Below are positions 1,259-59,330 of a DNA stretch of 64,000 bases, piece after piece. The stretch lies in sequence record OY720014; one strand, 5' to 3'. A program made the translations under genes and the position numbers. This DNA is from Escherichia phage vB_Eco_QOTSP. The notes under the pieces are model-generated. The model saw only the letters and a program-made list of their open reading frames with translations, made no database searches and was not told the origin of the DNA. How positions within the stretch are numbered: position 1 is the stretch's first letter; every line of letters begins with the position of its first letter.

Positions 1259-2224
1259 TTATATTGCTCCTAATATTTTACTTTGCGAATTGACAATTCC
1301 TGTCATAGTATTAATGTTTGAAATGCTTCCTGCAGTTCCCCCTAATCTACTGAGTCGTGAAAGCGAATTAGATAGTCCAGTAACACCTCCACTATTTCCG
1401 AGAACGCTTTGAATACCATTTATAGCAGTAGATTCAAGCCATTCAAGCGCAGCTTGCCTATCAACTGCTCCAGCCTGCATCACTCTATACGCAAAAGTAA
1501 CGTCAAATGTAGTTATTTGGTTATCTCCATCATATGATAACTCAGGAGCGCTCACTGACACTGGAATGCATCCAGTGAACATCACCGCAGTATGAGGCAA
1601 TCCATTACGAGAATGAAGATTAACCTGAATATCTGCCTCGACATCCTGTGGCAAAGCGCGTAATCCAGTTACTGGGTCTTGAACGGAGTTAACCCAGTCT
1701 TGCATTGCACGATAGTTACAAGCTTCTGAATCCATTCTAAATGAAATAACCAAAGGGTCTAATTCTCTCCCAGTTATACGAATATTAGGAGAATTATAGT
1801 TCCAGTCAGTTTCATAGGATAATCTATTCTCTGGCATTTTTACAGAGTATATCATCAATCCAGATGAGTTATATGCCATGTTAAAGAAGTCAATTAAATA
1901 TGTACCAACTGTAAATGAGCCTAATAAACTTTGAACTGTACGTTGACTCATGGCACCAATAAGATATTTACTAACCCCTGATTTTCTTATCAGTTTTTGT
2001 GTGCCAGCAGTAATTAGCGTGGTAATTCCCTGATTAATATCACCTTGAGTCAATCCTAACCAATCTGAATTTAGGCCCAAGTTATTATAAGAAAAGTTGC
2101 TAATTGAACTTATCAACGAAGAGCTTTTAGTTGATGGAGTTGTCGCAAAAACGCAGCTAAACATATTATTACGTTGGAAATCTGCGTTTATTGCTTGATT
2201 ATTAAATTCCTCTAAAGAATACAT
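1259..2224 (-). CDS. 54: baseplate-tail tube junction protein gp54
   Basis: 321 aa; T4 synteny 48-54-alt; length matches T4 gp54. Confidence 0.85.
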   Translation of the reverse strand: MYSLEEFNNQAINADFQRNNMFSCVFATTPSTKSSSLISSISNFSYNNLGLNSDWLGLTQGDINQGITTLITAGTQKLIRKSGVSKYLIGAMSQRTVQSLLGSFTVGTYLIDFFNMAYNSSGLMIYSVKMPENRLSYETDWNYNSPNIRITGRELDPLVISFRMDSEACNYRAMQDWVNSVQDPVTGLRALPQDVEADIQVNLHSRNGLPHTAVMFTGCIPVSVSAPELSYDGDNQITTFDVTFAYRVMQAGAVDRQAALEWLESTAINGIQSVLGNSGGVTGLSNSLSRLSRLGGTAGSISNINTMTGIVNSQSKILGAI

Positions 2225-9528: not shown

Positions 9529-9771
9529 TTAAAAGCTTTCTTCTACTTCATCGTCTGAATCTTCTAATTCAGCTCTTTTTCCTGCCAAAGCATCTCTGAC
9601 TGAGATGTCATCAGTATCTTTTAATTCAGTTTCTTTAACTCTTTTCTTATAATAAGCTTCAAGTTCTTCTAAACCTTCTAATGTTTGACAAGAGGCAATT
9701 TTACCCATAAATTCATCAATAGAAGCTTCATAAAGAAATTGTTTAAATTCTAGTAACATCTTTTTCTCCAA
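9529..9771 (-). CDS. uvsW.1: UvsW.1 small acidic protein
   Basis: 80 aa ORF immediately downstream of uvsW. Confidence 0.7.
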   Translation of the reverse strand: MEKKMLLEFKQFLYEASIDEFMGKIASCQTLEGLEELEAYYKKRVKETELKDTDDISVRDALAGKRAELEDSDDEVEESF

Positions 9772-18019: not shown

Positions 18020-18829
18020 TTAGAAACGAGATGCGACTTTCGCATATACACTTACAATATCTTCTGCACCTTGTGCAGCTTTATCTTCTACAGCTTCAGT
18101 GACGAAATTCAGTCCGGCTGCTTCAGTATCAGGAGTATTTATACTCTCAGTAATAGTGCTTTCATCTTTATTAGATTTCTTCACCATTTCTACGATTGCA
18201 CTCAATTTACTTGAGAATGCATCTGAATAATCCATACCTTCGACCAGAGCAGAGACTTTTTCTTTTTGAGACTCAGTCAGATCTTTAGTACTTTCGCTCA
18301 ATGCCACTTCACGCTGCACATAATTGATATATGCGTCACGCTTATTGAGTTCTTCGAACAGACGAGCTGATTCTTCTTTATGTTCTTGCAGCTCTTCTTC
18401 CATTTCAGCTACAACATCAACTGATTCTTCTGGAACAACAACGTTGTGTTCAACAAAGAGCTCTTTTAATCCACCAAGCATGGATTCAAACAGTTCGGCT
18501 TTGATGCCTTTATCAACTGCTAATTTATTTTCAGCGAGCCATTCTTTCGCAAGATGGTCAATGAATTTAGAAGCTTGCTCAGCGATTTTCTTCTCAGCTT
18601 TTTCTTCGGCTTCTTCTTTATTTTTTTCTACTTCTTCTTCTGCTTTTTCAGCAATTTTAGCGATATGAGATTCAGCTAATTTAACGGCGTGCTGCTTGAC
18701 GGTAGCTTCGAATACAGTGCCGAAAGTTTCTTTTGCTTCCGGAGAAATATTAACTGATTCGAAAATACTATCAAGAGCAACGGAAGCATCAATTTTTTGC
18801 GCTTCAGCAATCAGTTGTTCTTTAAGCAT
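18020..18829 (-). CDS. 22: prohead scaffold protein gp22
   Basis: 269 aa, acidic coiled-coil. Confidence 0.9.
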   Translation of the reverse strand: MLKEQLIAEAQKIDASVALDSIFESVNISPEAKETFGTVFEATVKQHAVKLAESHIAKIAEKAEEEVEKNKEEAEEKAEKKIAEQASKFIDHLAKEWLAENKLAVDKGIKAELFESMLGGLKELFVEHNVVVPEESVDVVAEMEEELQEHKEESARLFEELNKRDAYINYVQREVALSESTKDLTESQKEKVSALVEGMDYSDAFSSKLSAIVEMVKKSNKDESTITESINTPDTEAAGLNFVTEAVEDKAAQGAEDIVSVYAKVASRF

Positions 18830-18855: not shown

Positions 18856-18863
18856 ATATTTAT
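18856..18863 (-). promoter_or_regulatory. late promoter TATAAATA upstream of gene 22
   Basis: Exact TATAAATA on minus strand about 27 bp from start codon. Confidence 0.6.
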
Positions 18864-19498
18864 AACGCTTTTTTCATGGCCTCTGCGAGAGCCATATAGG
18901 CGTCATCGGCACTTGTATCGGCTTCCGCCGTCTGTGATTCGGTAATTTCCTTAGGAGTTACCCATGCATCTGGAGCACTTGGACCCCATACTGCATCAAC
19001 ACCTACAGTTAATTTGAATCCTTCGTTTACGATACGATAACCTTTATTTGTGTCAGTCAATGAACCTAATCCACGAGAAGAAACTCCTGGAATCCATCCG
19101 GCACGAATATTAGCTGCTAATTTATCTCCAGGACCATGGTCACCTTCAATAACACGAGCTCGTCCGTATACGTCATTTCCTTTCCACCACATATCTTCTA
19201 TAATGATAGCGGCTTGCATCGGGTCAACATTAGCGCGTGGAGGATGATTTAATTCTCCGAGAGCTTGTTTAGTTAAAACTTGCTCATTGATATAGTCTTT
19301 TACCGCTTTTTCTAATATGCGTTTTGGATAAAGACGTTTATTTCTATTGACGACTTCCGCTTGCATGAATATTCCTTCGATGTATAAACCAGGTTTTAAA
19401 CCTAGGTCTTTTCCATCATGAGATTCAAGCATTGGCACGCCATCAATAATTTCGCCAGGTTGACCCCAAGTTTCAATTAGTAATTGGGGTTCATTCAT
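18860..19498 (-). CDS. 21: prohead core protease gp21
   Basis: 212 aa, recognisable T4 gp21. Confidence 0.9.
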   Translation of the reverse strand: MNEPQLLIETWGQPGEIIDGVPMLESHDGKDLGLKPGLYIEGIFMQAEVVNRNKRLYPKRILEKAVKDYINEQVLTKQALGELNHPPRANVDPMQAAIIIEDMWWKGNDVYGRARVIEGDHGPGDKLAANIRAGWIPGVSSRGLGSLTDTNKGYRIVNEGFKLTVGVDAVWGPSAPDAWVTPKEITESQTAEADTSADDAYMALAEAMKKAL

Positions 19499-19923
19499 TA
19501 GCTTAATCCTAATGCTTTACGGCGTTTAAGAGCTTTTTTACGCTTACGCTGAGCACGAGATTGACCTGCTGGGTTGGCAATCTTCGTTTTGGTAGCTTTG
19601 CGAGCAATTTGTCTACGTTTTGCTTTAGACAGCCCGGTGGTTTGAAATGCATTACGTTCACGCGTCTTGCGGTCTTTAGTACGTGTAATTTCACCACGAG
19701 CAGAAACATGTTTAACGATGAATTCATTTAGCGGCATATCTTCATTAATAGAAGCTAATGCAATCGCTAAATCAGTTTCATCATCAAGCATATTCTCGAC
19801 AATTGTATTTATATCGTCTTTATTTAAAGCAGAAGACAATTCGTCAAAGCGACCCTGTGCTTCAGGAATAAGTGCTTCGACATTCTCGAGAACTAATTCA
19901 TGAGTTTCAGGGATCAGAAGCAT
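19498..19923 (-). CDS. 68: prohead core protein gp68
   Basis: 141 aa, position. Confidence 0.8.
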
Positions 19924-20179
19924 TATTCATCATCCTCGTCTTCGTCATCTTCGTCAGAGTCTTTGTCTTTTTTGTCGTCTTTATCATCGCTATCTTCATC
20001 ATCCTCGTCTTCGTCATCATCCTCGTCATCAGGTTCTTCACCTTCGATTAAGAAATTACGAGCGATAGCGATTTTTTCTTCTTTAATTAAATCAATCGTT
20101 CTTGCAGCCATGGCTTCAGCAAAGAATTTACGAGCGGCTACGAGGTCGTTTGATTTAATAGCTTCAATTAAACCTTCCA

Positions 20180-20180
<1 letters not shown>
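19923..20180 (-). CDS. 67: prohead core protein gp67 with poly-acidic tail
   Basis: 85 aa; Asp/Glu-rich low-complexity C-terminus. Confidence 0.8.
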
Positions 20181-21805
<1,625 letters not shown>

Positions 21806-47749: not shown

Positions 47750-48446
<697 letters not shown>

Positions 48447-48458
48447 TTTCACAAAGTT

Positions 48459-48488
48459 GTTTACATACTGATGAGGTAGTGATACTAT
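48459..48488 (+). promoter_or_regulatory. T4-type early promoter with stem-loop (PeSL-like cassette), copy 1
   Basis: GTTTACA -35, TACTAT -10 inside 9-bp inverted repeat GATGAGGTA/TACCTCATC. Confidence 0.6.
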
Positions 48489-48519
48489 TACCTCATCAAA
48501 ATTAATTAGGAAAATAAAA

Positions 48520-48777
48520 ATGAAAACTTTCAAAGAGTTTGCTACAGAAACTATTATCACTGAATCTTCTCATGGTATGGAAGTAAAGCTTGGAATGGCT
48601 TTAGCTGAAGCTGAGCGTCTTTTTTCTCGTATTAAAGAACTTGCTGCTGCAGTCGATCCTTCATCTTTTAAAGGAGACCAAACTAAAGTTAAAGCACTTT
48701 TAGCATTATGCTCTGATGCAGGAGAAATCGCTAAGAACGGTTCTAAGATGAAGAAACGATTAGAAGATTTAAAATAA
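48520..48777 (+). CDS. small protein with capsid-targeting-like N-terminus (MKTFKEFATE)
   Basis: 85 aa ORF with RBS, downstream of early promoter cassette. Confidence 0.6.
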   Translation: MKTFKEFATETIITESSHGMEVKLGMALAEAERLFSRIKELAAAVDPSSFKGDQTKVKALLALCSDAGEIAKNGSKMKKRLEDLK

Positions 48778-48789
48778 TTTCACAAAGTT

Positions 48790-48819
48790 GTTTACACGGG
48801 GTTTTAGTAGTGATACTAT
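48790..48819 (+). promoter_or_regulatory. early promoter/stem-loop cassette, copy 2
   Basis: Same 30-bp upstream block (GATTTAAAATAATTTCACAAAGTTGTTTACA) as copy 1. Confidence 0.6.
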
Positions 48820-48855
48820 TACCCTATCAAAACAAATGTGAAATTGGAGAATAAA

Positions 48856-49089
48856 ATGAAAACGTATCAAGAATTTATTGCTGAAGCTGCTGATGTAAAA
48901 GTTGAGTTTATTTACATTGGCAAGAAAGATAAAATGGGCGAAATGCCTCATGGAGTTCTTCGTGATGCATTAGATAATTTCGGTCAACTCGCCGCAGAAG
49001 ATTACGGTGATAAAATTGTTGTTACTGGTCCGGCTGCAGTTATTGAAAAATGGGCAGCAGAAAATAAATCAATTTTTCGTAAAAAATGA
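48856..49089 (+). CDS. ipI: internal protein I-like head protein (CTS MKTYQEFIAE)
   Basis: 77 aa from ATG with GGAG RBS; canonical T4 capsid targeting sequence; ipI locus position. Confidence 0.65.
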   Translation: MKTYQEFIAEAADVKVEFIYIGKKDKMGEMPHGVLRDALDNFGQLAAEDYGDKIVVTGPAAVIEKWAAENKSIFRKK

Positions 49090-50222: not shown

Positions 50223-50492
50223 TCATCCATTGAAAATGGATATAAATATGATCAAGAAGCAGCTAAAGCCTTGATTGATGATTATGGCATTTTAACATGT
50301 TTTGAAGTTGAAAAGGTTTACATTGACCGTTCATCTTCTCAGGTTAAATTAGTAAAAGAAGACCGTAAATTTAATACAGTAAATTTTGATTTCTTTATTG
50401 AAACAGAAAAAGGTCCTCTTGAATATGATATTTTCAAGAATCCTTTGGGTCTTGAATGTATTCAGAAAACGTATATTAATGCAGCGTGGTGA
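50202..50492 (+). CDS. hypothetical protein (96 aa, MILYAKVSS...)
   Basis: ORF starting in repeat copy B. Confidence 0.55.
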   Translation: MILYAKVSSIENGYKYDQEAAKALIDDYGILTCFEVEKVYIDRSSSQVKLVKEDRKFNTVNFDFFIETEKGPLEYDIFKNPLGLECIQKTYINAAW

Positions 50493-50494
50493 AA

Positions 50495-51089
50495 ATGAAT
50501 ATTTGTTTAGGTACTACAATTCCGCAGGGTTACGTAATTGATGTCACTACCTGGGAAAATGATGGTGACAACTATAAAACTAAAACACTGTTTGGCGTAG
50601 AAGAGCATGAAATCTTACAATTCCAATATCTTTTAAAGAAGTTTAAAAGCAGACATTCTAGTACTAAAGCTGAACGTTATTGTGGTAATGGCTTGTTCAG
50701 CGAGCAATCGCTTTTTATTTATGAATACTTGGTTGAAGGACTGTTCTCAGAACAACTTTATCCAGAATTCATTAAAAAGGTAGCAATCGCTTTTTATTTA
50801 TGAATACTTGGTTGAAGGACTGTTCTCAGAACAACTTTATCCAGAATTCATTAAAAAGGTCTTTGACATAGAAGTTGACCTTGGTAATAAATCCGAAGAA
50901 GACGAAGAACGTGTATTTGACTTATTCTTTGTGAATGGTAATAAAGTGCTTGAAGGACTTATTAATATTTTAGGCAGTGCTTCTGAGTATTATGATTATG
51001 ATTTTTTGCGTGTAGTTGAGAGTGTTAAATACTCTTATATAGAAAAAGAAATTGTTTTGCCGACCGTTAAAATGTTTAATTTGCTTTAA
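50495..51089 (+). pseudogene. hypothetical gene split by a 79-bp perfect tandem duplication (fragments 50495..50803 and 50808..51089)
   Basis: Peptide LVEGLFSEQLYPEFIKKV encoded twice; duplication length not a multiple of 3. Confidence 0.7.
50703..50860 (+). repeat. perfect tandem duplication 2 x 79 bp
   Basis: 50703..50781 identical to 50782..50860. Confidence 0.9.
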
Positions 51090-51175
51090 GAATTATTTGT
51101 TATTATTAACTCATACCGCACTGATTAATACCCTCTATCATCAAGGGTTCTTGTTTGAGAGCCTTTGTTAATAAT

Positions 51176-51248
51176 TGGGAATTAGCCAAGTTGGTAAGGC
51201 ACTGGATTTTGATTCCAGGATGCAAAGGTTCGAGTCCTTTATTCCCAG
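51176..51248 (+). tRNA. tRNA-Gln (UUG)
   Basis: Cloverleaf: acceptor TGGGAAT/ATTCCCA, anticodon loop TTTTGAT, T-arm AAAGG-TTCGAGT-CCTTT. Confidence 0.85.
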
Positions 51249-51249
51249 C

Positions 51250-51336
51250 GCGAGAATGGTCAAATTGGTAAAGGCACAGCACTTAAAATGCTGCGGAATG
51301 ATTTCCTTGTGGGTTCGAGTCCCACTTCTCGCACCA
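51250..51336 (+). tRNA. tRNA-Leu (UAA), long variable arm, encoded CCA
   Basis: Acceptor GCGAGAA/TTCTCGC, anticodon loop CTTAAAA, T-arm GTGGG-TTCGAGT-CCCAC. Confidence 0.85.
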
Positions 51337-51341
51337 AATTT

Positions 51342-51415
<74 letters not shown>

Positions 51416-51461
51416 ATTTATGACTCGTCGTGAGACGCTCAGTTCTTTATTAGGGACTGAT

Positions 51462-52070
51462 ATGCATTTTTATCTTTATAAAATAACAAATAAAATTAAT
51501 AATAAAATTTATATTGGTGTGCATTCTACCGAAAATTTAGATGATGGATATATGGGTTCTGGTAAATTATTAAAAAGAGCCCAAGATAAATATGGTATAG
51601 AAAATTTTTCTAAAGAAATATTAGAGTATTTTGACGATAAAGAATCTATGCTTGAAGCCGAGAAAAATATTGTCACAGAAGAGTTTTTAAATAGACCAGA
51701 TGTGTATAATTTAAAACTTGGAGGTGAAGGTGGATGGGATCATATAAATAATTATCCTATGACAGATCAGCAACGCGAATTAATTTCATTGGGTGTTAAA
51801 AAGGCGCATTCTAACGGAAAATTAAAAGGATGGTCTTCAAATGGATTAATGAAGAATGGCTTTGCTGGTAAAACTCATTCTCAAGAAGCTAAACGTAAAA
51901 TAGCAAAAGCAAACGAAGCAAAAGTTTCTGCGGATGAAAGAAAAAGAAGAATAGAAATTTCTAAATTATATGATTTTTCTAAACGTGGCGAATTGTCTAA
52001 ATATGCTAAGCATATTGGCGTAAGTCATACTCAAGCAAAAAGAATTCTAAATCAAATTAACAATATATAA
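51462..52070 (+). CDS. segB: GIY-YIG homing endonuclease (SegB-like) inside the tRNA cluster
   Basis: GIY-YIG motif YLYKITNKINNKIYIGVHS; start taken at ATG 51462 (ORF track start 51420 overlaps tRNA-Gly). Confidence 0.8.
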   Translation: MHFYLYKITNKINNKIYIGVHSTENLDDGYMGSGKLLKRAQDKYGIENFSKEILEYFDDKESMLEAEKNIVTEEFLNRPDVYNLKLGGEGGWDHINNYPMTDQQRELISLGVKKAHSNGKLKGWSSNGLMKNGFAGKTHSQEAKRKIAKANEAKVSADERKRRIEISKLYDFSKRGELSKYAKHIGVSHTQAKRILNQINNI

Positions 52071-52076
52071 ATATTT

Positions 52077-52166
52077 GGAGGCGTGGCAGAGTGGTTTAAT
52101 GCACCGGTCTTGAAAACCGGCAGTCGCTCCGGCGACTCATAGGTTCAAATCCTATCGCCTCCGCCA
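52077..52166 (+). tRNA. tRNA-Ser (UGA), long variable arm
   Basis: Acceptor GGAGGCG/CGCCTCC, anticodon loop CTTGAAA, CCA encoded. Confidence 0.85.
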
Positions 52167-52172
52167 GTTTTT

Positions 52173-52248
52173 GCTGATTTAGCTCAGTAGGTAGAGCACC
52201 TCACTTGTAATGAGGACGTCGGCGGTTCGATTCCGTCAATCAGCACCA
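52173..52248 (+). tRNA. tRNA-Thr (UGU)
   Basis: Acceptor GCTGATT/AATCAGC, anticodon loop CTTGTAA, T-arm GGCGG-TTCGATT-CCGTC. Confidence 0.85.
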
Positions 52249-52249
52249 A

Positions 52250-52324
52250 GGCCCTGTAGCTGGAAGGTTCAAGCAAGCGACTCATAATCGCCAGATGGTG
52301 GTTCAATTCCACCCAGGGCCACCA
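52250..52324 (+). tRNA. tRNA-Ile (CAU anticodon; Met-like by sequence)
   Basis: Acceptor GGCCCTG/CAGGGCC, anticodon loop CTCATAA. Confidence 0.8.
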
Positions 52325-52333
52325 AATTAATTT

Positions 52334-52420
52334 GGGGAGTTATCCCGTAGAGGTAGCGGTGTGGACTGTAAATTCATTGTCATTGCGACTCGGGTGGTTC
52401 GACTCCACCACTCCCCACCA
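52334..52420 (+). tRNA. tRNA-Tyr (GUA), long variable arm
   Basis: Acceptor GGGGAGT/ACTCCCC, anticodon loop CTGTAAA, T-arm GGTGG-TTCGACT-CCACC. Confidence 0.75.
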
Positions 52421-52424
52421 ATTT

Positions 52425-52499
52425 GGATGTGTAGCTCAATGGCAGAGCGATCGCCTGTTAAGCGATTGGTTATAGGTTCGAATCCTATCACGTCCGCCA
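52425..52499 (+). tRNA. tRNA-Asn (GUU)
   Basis: Acceptor GGATGTG/CACGTCC, anticodon stem ATCGC/GCGAT, loop CTGTTAA. Confidence 0.8.
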
Positions 52500-52503
52500 A
52501 ATT

Positions 52504-52519
52504 TGTGACAACTGTCACA
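52504..52519. promoter_or_regulatory. perfect TGTGA-N6-TCACA palindrome (CRP-consensus-like) in tRNA cluster spacer
   Basis: TGTGACAACTGTCACA seen directly; function unknown. Confidence 0.3.
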
Positions 52520-52613
52520 TTAATATCTACTTGACGCGATTATAGGGGTTGAACTGATCACTCTTCTCTTAATTTCGTGTGAAGACATCTTGATTGTTGG
52601 AGTAGGTATTAAT

Positions 52614-52689
52614 GTGGCCGTAGTTCAGTTGGTAGAACTCGAGATTGTGATTCTCGTAGTCATGGGTTCGACTCCCATCGGTCACCCCA
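52614..52689 (+). tRNA. tRNA-His (GUG), no encoded G-1
   Basis: Acceptor GTGGCCG/CGGTCAC, anticodon stem CGAGA/TCTCG, loop TTGTGAT. Confidence 0.8.
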
Positions 52690-52693
52690 ATTA

Positions 52694-52769
52694 CGGGGCA
52701 TAGCTCAGAAGGAAGAGCAAGGACCTTCTAAGTCCTAGGTCGTAGGTTCGATCCCTACTGCCTCGACCA
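52694..52769 (+). tRNA. tRNA-Arg (UCU)
   Basis: Acceptor CGGGGCA/TGCCTCG, anticodon stem AGGAC/GTCCT, loop CTTCTAA. Confidence 0.85.
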
Positions 52770-52787
52770 ATTATAAGTGAGGAAAAT

Positions 52788-53138
52788 ATGAAAGGTAATG
52801 TTTATTTAGTAGTTCATGATTTAACATTTTACTTCAATGAATATGAAAAACATATCTCATTTCGTGAAATTAATTTACTTTATCAACATGCGGATTATAT
52901 TTATATTCAAAACGAATTTGGTCATTGGCAATTTCTCAAAAATCGTTCATTTGGCTTAGATGGTTACGAATACTTTGAACGTAAAGACCTTTTAGATAAA
53001 ATTCCGTTATCTACGCAATATCAAAATCACAAATCTTTATATAAATGCCGTCCAATTCGAAATGTTGAATCCGCGTATGAAGCAATTGATTTATGGCGTG
53101 AACGCCGTAAACAGATTGATGCTTTAAAAGAATATTAA
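52788..53138 (+). CDS. hypothetical protein (116 aa)
   Basis: ORF with GAGGAA RBS directly after tRNA-Arg. Confidence 0.6.
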   Translation: MKGNVYLVVHDLTFYFNEYEKHISFREINLLYQHADYIYIQNEFGHWQFLKNRSFGLDGYEYFERKDLLDKIPLSTQYQNHKSLYKCRPIRNVESAYEAIDLWRERRKQIDALKEY

Positions 53139-53447
53139 GAAACCGGGTCGCTACCGGTAAGTCGTCGGACTGATGTTCCCTGAGTAAGGAATTGCGTTAA
53201 TAATCTTTGCGTTTATTGATGCCCTCTTACATCACAGCAGAAACGGCGCACCGAATTATCGATTCGAGGAAATATCTTTGCCGTAAGCCGAGTAGCGTTT
53301 TTGACGGAACGTTCGGATATGGTCGAGATATGGCCTTTTAAAAATATTGAGTAGCGTCAACTGCTTAATAACCGGGTTCGAATCCCGGCGTTTCGTACAA
53401 ACACTTGCCTTAGCAGGTGGAACCCCGACAAGGTTGCCGCAAGGCTT
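53139..53447 (+). ncRNA. putative small stable RNA(s) / tRNA-like element (ORF-free structured region)
   Basis: About 310 bp with no ORF of 60 aa or more in any frame, several local hairpins, tRNA-like T-arm CCGGG-TTCGAAT-CCCGG at 53372..53388, followed by terminator. Confidence 0.35.
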
Positions 53448-53475
53448 AGCCCCGACCGAAAGGTTGGGGCTTTTT
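53448..53475 (+). terminator. rho-independent terminator AGCCCCGACC-GAAA-GGTTGGGGCT + T5
   Basis: Seen directly; near-identical copy at 54007..54035. Confidence 0.8.
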
Positions 53476-53477
53476 GG

Positions 53478-53485
53478 TATAAATA
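53478..53485 (+). promoter_or_regulatory. late promoter TATAAATA upstream of ORF 53526
   Basis: Exact motif about 40 bp upstream of ATG. Confidence 0.55.
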
Positions 53486-53525
53486 TAGTAGTATATTAAA
53501 TCCACGAATTAAAACAGGAAATAAG

Positions 53526-53999
53526 ATGAAATCATATACTCAATTTTTAAATGAAGCGGTGTTAAATGAAGCATCTAGCACCGAAATTCAAGCTGTCGCA
53601 AAAGCAGCCATTGCAGCGGGTAAATATTCCTATAAAGATGCTTCTGATGAATCGCGATTCCAGTTCGCACGCGACATGAAAGCGGAAGGATTTACGGGAA
53701 ATGCAGTTAGTATGGCCTGGAAAAGTTTAGTTGCTACTGGAGCTGCTTTTGCAAAGGCTTCAGGTAAACCTGCTCCTAAGGCTGACCCTAAAGCAGCACA
53801 AGAAAAAAATATTGCTAAAGGAATTATCTCTAGGTATGAAGCAATTCTTAAAGAACTTTTGATAATTAAGACCGAAGGCCAGAAACTTGCGCGAGCTCAT
53901 AGTTTCAAAGATAATCCACATGCTCATGACCTAGAGTATGTTGAAGACATCCAAAAAATTATTAAAGATCGCATTTGGTCTGCTAAACAAATCAAATAA
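53526..53999 (+). CDS. hypothetical 157-aa protein with CTS-like N-terminus (MKSYTQFLNEA); candidate head internal protein
   Basis: ORF with RBS, late promoter, Ala/Lys-rich. Confidence 0.6.
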   Translation: MKSYTQFLNEAVLNEASSTEIQAVAKAAIAAGKYSYKDASDESRFQFARDMKAEGFTGNAVSMAWKSLVATGAAFAKASGKPAPKADPKAAQEKNIAKGIISRYEAILKELLIIKTEGQKLARAHSFKDNPHAHDLEYVEDIQKIIKDRIWSAKQIK

Positions 54000-54006
54000 C
54001 ATTCTT

Positions 54007-54035
54007 AGCCCCGACCAAAAGGTTGGGGCTTTTTG
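54007..54035 (+). terminator. rho-independent terminator (second copy of GCCCCGACC...GGTTGGGGC + T5)
   Basis: Seen directly. Confidence 0.8.
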
Positions 54036-54167
54036 GTATCTAGGCCTTTCCGGGCCTCTCTAGACATCATTTAGTTTCTACCCTTTATAATATATTATCC
54101 TATCTTTTAATTGCCCCTCCCTGCCCTAGAATTCCCCAAAACTTTTTAAAAATTTTTTCACAAAACA

Positions 54168-54198
54168 GTTTACATCCTTACCCTTCCATGGTACTATA
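54168..54198 (+). promoter_or_regulatory. T4-type early promoter (GTTTACA ... TACTAT)
   Basis: Motifs seen upstream of ORF 54241. Confidence 0.5.
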
Positions 54199-54240
54199 CA
54201 ACTATCAACTACTGATACAGAAAACAACTTGGAGAATGAA

Positions 54241-54504
54241 ATGGATAATTACGGCGAACTGTTCAACTTCTTTATGAAATGTGTTTCAGAAGATTTTGGT
54301 CGTACAGTGAATGATATTAAAGTTATCGGTCCTGATCATCCGATGTTTGAAACTTACGCAGTAATGGGTAATGAAGATGGTCAGTGGTATACTGTAAAGG
54401 TTGTGATTAACATGTTCACTGCTGAAGGTTATGTTAAACTGTCTTCTAAAGTTTACCATGATAACGATGAAATCGCAGAAGAATATTTCAATAATATGAA
54501 ATAA
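54241..54504 (+). CDS. hypothetical protein (87 aa)
   Basis: ATG with GGAGAA RBS (ORF track start 54229 is TTG). Confidence 0.6.
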   Translation: MDNYGELFNFFMKCVSEDFGRTVNDIKVIGPDHPMFETYAVMGNEDGQWYTVKVVINMFTAEGYVKLSSKVYHDNDEIAEEYFNNMK

Positions 54505-57402: not shown

Positions 57403-58371
<969 letters not shown>

Positions 58372-58430: not shown

Positions 58431-58847
58431 ATGACTCGTATTAATTTGACTTTAGTATCTGAACTTGCTGATCAACATTTAATCGCAGAATACCGTGAAT
58501 TGCCGCGTGTTTTTGGTATAGTTCGTAAGCATGTGGCAAACGGTAAGCGCGTTAAAGATTTTAAAATATCTTCCGAGTTTATTTTAGGTTCTGGTCATGT
58601 TACGTTCTTTTACGATAAGTTAGAATTTTTGCGAAAGCGTCAATCGGACATTATAACGGAATGCTTAAAACGCGGGTTCAGTATAAAAGATACTGAAGTT
58701 CCTGACATCAGCGATATTCCAGTAGAATGGAAAAATGATTATAATCCATGCAAATCAGCTATTAAATTGAGTCAACAACGACTTGATGAAAAAATTTTAA
58801 TGAAACCACATTGGTATAAGTATTACGGTAAAAATATTTACATTTAA
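58431..58847 (+). CDS. denV: endonuclease V (pyrimidine dimer DNA glycosylase)
   Basis: 138 aa, [17 protein letters not shown]... recognisable as T4 DenV. Confidence 0.95.
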
Positions 58848-58856
58848 AGGAAACAT

Positions 58857-59330
58857 ATGAAAACATATCAAGAATTTATCGCTGAAGCAGCTATTAATTC
58901 TCAAATTATTGCTGAATCTTTTACTGATCTTTTGAAATTTAAAAAAGGTCAAAAAATCACTGCTGTATTGGATGATGGTACAGAAGTTGAGATGGATGTA
59001 CAGGGATATAATTATGCAGTAGATGGAAAACTGTATAATAAATCTCATGCTAAATTTGATTCATTTGACGACTTTGTTAATACAGTTGAAGATGAAAAAA
59101 CTCGTAGATCCATTGCAACTGGTGATGCTAAGGTTCTTATGGCACATGGTCATGAACGCATTCGCGCTAAACAGAATAAAATGGGTGAAGATAATTTCGC
59201 ATTAGTTGGTTATCAATCTGGTAAACAAACTTATGGCTATCAACGTACTGCTACCATGTATAATAAAAATGGTAAAATTGCCTTTGTGAATAGTAAAGGT
59301 TCTATTCAGTACGTTAAATCGTTCAAATAA
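58857..59330 (+). CDS. internal protein-like head protein (CTS MKTYQEFIAEAA), 157 aa
   Basis: Canonical capsid targeting sequence; position near e as for T4 ipII/ipIII. Confidence 0.65.
   Translation: MKTYQEFIAEAAINSQIIAESFTDLLKFKKGQKITAVLDDGTEVEMDVQGYNYAVDGKLYNKSHAKFDSFDDFVNTVEDEKTRRSIATGDAKVLMAHGHERIRAKQNKMGEDNFALVGYQSGKQTYGYQRTATMYNKNGKIAFVNSKGSIQYVKSFK

Follow-up and report, generated by a model that had tools for sequence, protein, structure and literature searches.

An open reading frame (ORF) between rnaC and e.8 of Escherichia phage vB_Eco_QOTSP (sequence record OY720014) probably encodes a T4-type internal head protein, belonging to a family, phrog_2280, that has not been recognised as one of internal proteins. 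The stretch of 64,000 nucleotides that was analysed, hereafter the window, comes from a Tequatrovirus whose locus matches that of Escherichia phage vB_Eco_Some at 99.9% identity, and its plus strand corresponds to the T4 minus strand. What is new is phrog_2280, which is essentially unannotated; the class of T4 internal proteins is already well known, and no new kind of system is proposed. The timing of transcription and the packaging, cleavage positions, ejection and anti-defence role of the product are what we infer from the comparisons presented below.

Results

The ORF and its product

The original prediction described a 157-residue protein beginning MKSYTQFLNEA, and the ORF listing agrees with it to the letter: the product opens MKSYTQFLNEAVLNEA..., and the start is listed as MKSYTQFLNEAVLNEASS (Table 1). 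AlphaFold yields an all-helical model (pLDDT 75.5) composed of a confident N-terminal domain (residues 18–71, helices at 18–30, 41–53 and 59–71, pLDDT about 85–90), a weak linker (72–87) and a C-terminal hairpin (88–154, helices at 88–124 and 133–154). Ala16 is the predicted final mature N-terminus, and the computed product of a cut after Glu15 is a basic protein of 142 residues and 15.5 kDa with a pI of 9.55. A PHROG search with the product returned phrog_2280 alone, labelled “unknown function”, and profile searches against Pfam, NCBIfam and the PDB gave no match. Fold searches with the model retrieved just generic helical hairpins and nothing informative, and no recognisable binding or enzymatic domain was seen in these searches or in the AlphaFold model. 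An internal inverted repeat within the ORF (53590–53608 and 53742–53760, 84% complementary) was judged to be a chance feature.

That the frame is no real gene, having opened by chance in a spacer, is barely conceivable. Although it is hypothetical in every record and without a Pfam family, the protein is conserved in 511 phage records from seven genera, down to about 25% identity and with its domain structure kept; a good Shine-Dalgarno sequence precedes it, promoter and terminator are its own, and peptides of an ortholog have been found by mass spectrometry. Conservation and peptide evidence effectively refute the non-gene reading.

Table 1 Coordinates of the ORF, its predicted parts and associated features (window positions unless a phage is named; a slash within a residue string marks the end of a leader or a predicted cut, one within nucleotides the repeat junction)
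Feature	Position	Strand	Remarks
CDS	53526..53999	+	ATG start, 157 codons plus stop; ORF listing
Shine-Dalgarno AGGA	53516..53519	+	6 nt ahead of ATG, read from sequence
Predicted capsid targeting sequence, residues 1–10 (MKSYTQFLNE)	53526..53555	+	First predicted gp21 site after Glu10 (LNE/A)
Residues 11–15 (AVLNE)	53556..53570	+	Second predicted gp21 site (LNE/A), abuts conserved domain
Conserved N-terminal three-helix domain, residues 16–76 (AGKYSYKD.SDESRFQFARDMKAEGF..AWKS)	53571..53753	+	AlphaFold and family conservation
Lys/Pro/Ala-rich low-confidence linker, about residues 77–94 (KASGKPAPKADPKAAQEK)	53754..53807	+	pLDDT about 52
C-terminal helical hairpin, residues 95–157	53808..53996	+	AlphaFold; least conserved segment across phrog_2280
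T4-type late promoter box TATAAATA, exact	53478..53485	+	40 nt upstream of ORF; arises at repeat junction (GGTAT/AAATA)
Direct-repeat copy 1, terminator hairpin 53448–53471 plus T-run	53445..53480	+	Ends tRNA/rnaD/rnaC unit
Direct-repeat copy 2, terminator hairpin 54007–54030 plus T-run	54004..54039	+	Ends predicted late unit
Early-type promoter of e.8 homolog (54229..54504): TTTACA-17-TACTAT, with TG	54169..54197	+	Predicted early promoter in fPS-2 annotation; region near-identical to T4
gp21 prohead protease	18860..19498	-	Pfam Peptidase_S77, E = 1.4e-111
gp22 scaffolding core protein, prohead target of leader	18020..18829	-	Pfam T4_CASP, E = 1.7e-89
Two-leader-gene loci	fHe-Yen9-01 (Yersinia) 19422–20537; VP8 (Cronobacter) 1286–2010; 4S (Serratia) 1289–2070		One late operon each

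A predicted capsid targeting sequence

The likeness of the ORF start to T4 MKTYQEFIAE, on which the original prediction was built, holds for IPII and IPIII, which both begin with this sequence followed by Ala, but not for IPI, whose leader is a different one of 19 residues (MKTFKEFTSTTTPVSTITE/A). With IPII and IPIII the ORF shares M1, K2, Y4, F7, E10 and A11, S3 and L8 being conservative replacements; five of the ten leader positions differ (3, 5, 6, 8 and 9), and identity is put at about 50–60%. Residues 4 and 7 of the capsid targeting sequence serve mainly in targeting and residues 8 and 10 in processing (Mullaney and Black 1996, summarised in PMC9026906), and gp21 recognises I/L-x-E, cleaving behind the Glu. 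The ORF leader retains each of these four positions (Tyr4, Phe7, Leu8 and Glu10), with Ala next, and the combination of (L/I)-x-E and a small residue occurs twice, as predicted sites LNE/A at residues 8–11 and 13–16. Double gp21-type sites are also found in other internal proteins of the window and of KP1.

A strict form of the leader motif, M-x-x-[YF]-x-x-F-[LIV]-x-E, fits 3 of the window's 526 candidate ATG starts, where residue frequencies would predict 0.03, and its two other matches, at 48856 and 58857, are PHROG-annotated internal virion proteins. A looser motif additionally picked out the minus-strand ORF at 9759, which was rejected as a false positive: it is UvsW.1 (9532–9759, minus strand, phrog_1143), whose pseudo-leader MLLEFKQFLYEA is shifted by one residue and counsels caution in loose motif searches. 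Besides gp21 and gp22, the window also encodes gp67 (Pfam GP67, 1.6e-41). The proposal of a capsid-targeting-like N-terminus is borne out by comparative evidence, namely the key residues, the rarity of the motif, its conservation in the family and the presence of gp21 and gp22, and the assignment of residues 1–10 as a putative capsid targeting sequence is well supported.

Promoter, repeats and terminators

The exact late promoter said to precede the ORF is present as TATAAATA, and its first base, 53478, is where the original prediction had let the feature begin. The window contains 25 copies of this box, whereas shuffled sequence gives 9.3 ± 3.3. A repeat search identified two 36-nt direct repeats flanking the ORF, identical at 35 of 36 nt and hence differing in a single base, each holding a 10-bp hairpin rich in G+C with a T-run behind it, terminator-like in the scan (fold z = -4.4); the hairpin of copy 1 has an RNA fold of -21.5 kcal/mol. 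The copy 1 terminator is the one that follows rnaD and rnaC, rnaC being annotated under the match in phage Aplg8. Positions 53139–53411 of the window align to T4 rnaD and rnaC at nearly every base, and an Rfam scan of 51000–54400 returned tRNAs only, with no family at or above its gathering score in that rnaD/rnaC region.

Because the e.8 homolog has a separate early-type promoter, the ORF is its own transcription unit, and late promoter, gene and terminator therefore form a self-contained unit within an early-transcribed region. From its promoter, the ORF would be transcribed late, during prohead assembly.

The rnaC–e.8 site in T4, T2 and the window

The T4 map places ipI in the interval from 57B to trna.4 and the pair ipIII and ipII downstream of e, which rules out the ORF site as the canonical ipIII/ipII position. 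Sequence comparison found no gene at the rnaC–e.8 site of T4 and T2, the T4 interval spanning only about 280 bp; relative to T4, the description of the location as non-canonical was thus correct. The site carries one terminator copy in T4, likewise in T2, and two in the window. Window and T4 differ by a 559-bp indel whose ends are the 36-nt repeat, with the promoter junction reading GGTAT/AAATA in the window versus GGTAT/CTAAG in T4, and recombination between the two repeats would yield the exact T4 arrangement. The gene is a polymorphic accessory, absent from the T4/T2 site and present in 511 of about 700 records matching the locus. The site looks odd only from the viewpoint of T4; across seven Tevenvirinae genera it is, by comparison of loci, the conserved home of phrog_2280, and since the locus is conserved across genera, loss of the gene by T4 and T2 appears the more likely course.

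Other parts of the surrounding DNA were also annotated. The tRNA cluster (51176–52769) comprises 10 tRNAs (Gln, Leu, Gly, Ser, Thr, Met(CAT), Tyr, Asn, His and Arg) versus 8 in T4 and is broken by a GIY-YIG homing endonuclease gene (51420–52070, phrog_314), the position of which differs from T4 segB. Between tRNA-Arg and rnaD lies a 116-aa ORF (52788–53138, phrog_3355, “unknown function”) that is absent from T4; in T2 the counterpart position is occupied by a 351-bp ORF, EcT2_00138, matched by position alone. The adjacent ORFs at 50486–50803 and 50808–51089 correspond to the N-terminal and C-terminal halves, respectively, of a single family (phrog_2290, 165 aa), with a 17-residue stretch, VEGLFSEQLYPEFIKKV, duplicated at the break, and represent a split or duplicated gene or else a sequencing or assembly frameshift.

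At the ipI locus, genes start at 48520 (MKTFKEFATETIITE/S) and 48856 (MKTYQEFIAE/A), and near-identical repeated early-promoter regions upstream of them (48430–48520 and 48770–48856; ATTTAAAATAATTTCACAAAGTTGTTTACA...GTGATACTAT) look like promoter-early stem-loop cassettes of T4-type phages. The first of these genes has an IPI-like leader, the PHROG annotation “internal virion protein” and an upstream stem-loop overlapping the -10 element. Unlike the ORF, neither gene has TATAAATA within 80 nt upstream. Further along, the window carries e (57877–58371), denV (58431–58847) and an internal protein gene (58857–59330) in this order, whereas T4 has e, ipIII, ipII and denV; the single internal protein has 157 aa, belongs to another family (phrog_3155) and has a leader with two IAE sites, at residues 8–10 and 18–20.

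Distribution and conservation of phrog_2280

Members of phrog_2280 were detected by tblastn in all 511 of these records, and profile searches reached relatives at about 21–30% identity. Seven genera are represented, namely Tequatrovirus, Mosigvirus, Jiaodavirus, Tegunavirus, Karamvirus, Winklervirus and Muldoonvirus, together with an unclassified Serratia phage. Carriers of the gene include BASEL phage Bas42 AndreasVesalius, fPS-2 and phiD1. Among the matches listed, the genes are annotated “hypothetical protein” or “Phage protein” throughout, in line with the earlier view of an undescribed protein; that view does not extend to a homolog in Klebsiella phage KPKp, for which one UniRef entry already gives the name “Internal head protein”.

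In the loci inspected, from eight phages and six genera, the gene directly follows the tRNA cluster on its 3' side. The succession of hairpin, TATAAATA and phrog_2280 ORF recurs in most of them (Tequatrovirus, Jiaodavirus, Tegunavirus, Karamvirus, Winklervirus and Muldoonvirus), so that the box is kept ahead of homologs in five other genera; it stands 33–48 nt before the start in fPS-2, phiD1, KP1, fHe-Yen9-01, Entb_43, VP8 and 4S, and Kc304 has the variant CATAAATA. In VP8 and 4S the promoter serves a two-gene operon, the first gene being a 70–72-aa ORF with a targeting-like leader (MKSFTEFLTESADLTLTE/A) and the second phrog_2280, and in fHe-Yen9-01 two tandem phrog_2280 paralogs follow a single late promoter (Table 1). 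The site thus holds two leader-bearing genes in these phages and acts as an internal-protein locus open to expansion. Homogenisation of leaders within one phage was considered and none was seen: the fHe-Yen9-01 paralogs read ML.Y.EFLKE and its other internal proteins MK[TS]Y.EF.

An alignment of 12 divergent members (21–81% identity) has only M1, F7, K66, K81 and K85 as invariant columns, with L8 nearly so. The linker lysines K77, K81 and K85 are invariant or nearly so, and the linker keeps its composition while varying in sequence. Leaders across the family include MKSYAEFLTE/Q, MKFKEFLAE/A, MLEYSEFLKE/L, MLKFNEFLAE/G, MINFSDFLNE/G, MKSFSSFLNE/G and MISFNEFVDGNLITE/S. Position 4 is aromatic in the 12 homologs apart from P0010, whose leader, MKFKEF, is shorter and aligns a Lys there; position 2 is Leu or Ile in some homologs, and [L/I/M/F]-x-E occurs inside the first 16 residues of every homolog examined, abutting a conserved ‘ASS.D/E’ start in the closest ones. 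Mean pairwise identity is 0.53 over residues 1–10, 0.39 over the N-domain and 0.23 over the C-domain, making the leader the best-conserved segment. A leader more conserved than the protein body, together with the kept late promoter, therefore fits a functional targeting and cleavage signal and not a recombination relic.

These data bear on whether the product might be a late cytoplasmic protein that is never packaged, its leader being left over from ip-type gene-start recombination or serving some other purpose. Such a reading can draw on the leader being just about 50–60% identical to MKTYQEFIAE, on the capture of the non-internal UvsW.1 (MLLEFKQFLYEA) by the loose motif and on the unspecific nature of the virion mass-spectrometry evidence described below, yet we regard it as highly improbable. 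A relic would decay, whereas residues 1–10 are the best conserved across lineages that are ~21–30% identical elsewhere; the [L/I]-x-E site with a small following residue is retained, as is the late promoter in homologs, and in the window the strict motif is otherwise confined to annotated internal proteins.

Possible virion association of an ortholog

The ortholog in phage phiD1, Gp140, shares its first 90 residues with the ORF product and was called particle-associated at the strict threshold by LC-MS/MS of purified virions (PMC8309999, Table S3). In the same dataset 137 of 277 phage proteins (49%) are particle-associated, DenV, NudE and lysozyme among them (PMC8309999), and because of this number of calls the hit for Gp140 discriminates poorly. 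Among the phiD1 genes of the ORF's region, 11 of 32 were called. The dataset thus points weakly to virion association of the ortholog. It is deposited as ProteomeXchange PXD026812, in which a cut leader is predicted to yield the peptides AVLNEASSTEIQAVAK or ASSTEIQAVAK and an uncut one SYTQFLNEAVLNEASSTEIQAVAK. The Jiaodavirus ValerieMcCarty phages, for which a virion proteome exists (PMC13119998), fall outside the records carrying a homolog, and a literature search for other Tequatrovirus virion proteomes gave nothing usable. On the leader and its conservation, we consider it likely, with some assurance, that the ORF product is packaged and processed as an internal protein.

Comparison with known internal proteins

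BLASTP of the ORF product against T4 IPIII and IPII gave nothing significant, and the possibility that the ORF is a divergent ipII or ipIII was rejected, as similarity ends at the leader. No similarity of the mature part to IPI, IPII, IPIII, solved structures, Pfam or NCBIfam families could be detected, and phrog_2280 is distinct from the PHROGs annotated as internal proteins.

Ip1, Ip2 and Ip3 have only the leader in common, and each inhibits a distinct GmrSD type IV restriction enzyme, those of CT596 (E. coli), ECOR21 and ECOR17, respectively (PMC12373910); IPIII is required on ECOR17 (PMC9391042). Profile, fold and BLASTP searches detected no sequence or fold similarity of the ORF product to known inhibitors. 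For ip4–10 no reproducible GmrSD inhibition was obtained, so not all internal proteins can be presumed to counter restriction.

Discussion

If the ORF product is indeed an internal head protein, its life cycle would begin with a solo late transcript, initiated at TATAAATA at 53478 and stopping at the downstream terminator copy. MKSYTQFLNE would steer the product into the gp22 scaffolding core of the prohead, where gp21 would cut after Glu10 and probably again after Glu15, leaving a basic, all-helical protein of ~15.5 kDa that would be kept with the DNA and enter the next host alongside it on ejection. The Lys/Pro/Ala-rich linker may aid DNA binding. In the new host, a first-line defence against the incoming glucosyl-hmC DNA would most likely be disabled or evaded, as with Ip1–3 and GmrSD. 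This anti-defence step is plausible from the analogy with Ip1–3 and the patchy distribution of the gene, and we put forward counter-defence as the role of the protein only tentatively.

A packaged protein could instead be purely structural or physical, neutralising charge, organising DNA in the head or forming a minor part of the scaffold core, with no specific host target. The basic mature protein (pI 9.5), its linker of conserved Lys/Pro/Ala composition and a simple helical bundle plus hairpin, in which no binding or enzymatic domain is recognisable, would all suit such a function, as would ip4–10 with no reproducible anti-GmrSD activity. Although it is the leading alternative, we find this unlikely. 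The gene is lacking in T4 and T2, and this absence, taken with gain and loss as a cassette, is more readily expected of an accessory for host range than of a structural requirement; moreover, all three T4 internal proteins were once deemed structural or basic head proteins and have recently proved to be specific inhibitors that are injected.

A more far-reaching version of the injected-effector reading, which we regard as doubtful in its full form, would make phrog_2280 an ancient family of injected proteins and the region immediately 3' of the tRNA cluster a third ip locus, shared by seven or more Tevenvirinae genera. The two-domain helical protein of this family, with an H1-like Lys/Pro/Ala linker, would neutralise a first-line defence beyond the GmrSD subtypes of Ip1–3, for instance one of the GmrSD clusters that are still orphans or a different system sensing modified DNA.

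To T4 specialists another leader-bearing gene will come as no surprise; the value of the family lies in its breadth, the conserved third locus, the missing annotation and the ease with which it can be tested against orphan GmrSD or other defences. Since ip4–10 are without a target and several active GmrSD clusters are without a known inhibitor, phrog_2280 would be a ready candidate for orphan interactions. It occurs in hundreds of phages of Escherichia, Shigella, Yersinia, Klebsiella, Serratia and Enterobacter, almost everywhere as “hypothetical”, and would be a candidate host-range determinant for therapeutic T4-like phages. Searches with MKTYQEFIAE only miss leader variants; these are recovered when a late promoter is required together with a motif of positions 4, 7, 8 and 10, and the variant MKSYTQFLNE is a natural datum on sequence tolerance for engineering of T4 head delivery.

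Among known systems, the closest likeness is to IPII and IPIII. They and the ORF product have a leader of ~10 residues with Tyr4, Phe7, [I/L]-x-E and Ala at P1', and are small, basic, non-essential accessories of the e / tRNA / 57B region in phages with gp21 and gp22. The ORF differs in its position between rnaC and e.8, theirs being downstream of e, and in its variant leader, MKSYTQFLNE, behind which LNE recurs at a distance of five residues; Ip2 and Ip3 act on the GmrSD of ECOR21 and ECOR17, whereas the ORF is matched to no target. With IPI it shares the design of an accessory precursor with a cleaved N-terminal leader, patchy among T-even phages, and a leader that exceeds 10 residues, with 19 in IPI and probably 15 in the ORF; IPI is injected, and the ORF product so by prediction. 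Unlike the ORF product, IPI is acidic, has the leader MKTFKEFTSTTTPVSTITE/A and an unrelated sequence, and its anti-restriction activity is demonstrated where that of the ORF is conjecture.

The ip4–ip10 genes are reportedly found at the ipI locus. At that locus in the window, the genes at 48520 and 48856 belong to phrog 3499 and 8111, which are annotated as internal proteins, and phrog_2280 lacks such an annotation. The ip4–ip10 genes of T-even phages were recognised by their shared leader alone and are polymorphic between phages (Repoila et al. 1994, via PMC12373910 and PMC9026906). The ORF resembles them, in a comparison by description only, as an additional leader-recognised, polymorphic gene. 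Promoter-early stem-loops are said to act as mobile regulatory cassettes in T4-type genomes. Like these cassettes, the locus consists of a single accessory gene between repeated regulatory hairpins able to mediate gain and loss by homologous recombination; unlike them, it is repeated around a 36-nt hairpin of terminator type, to which a late promoter and no early promoter stem-loop is attached.
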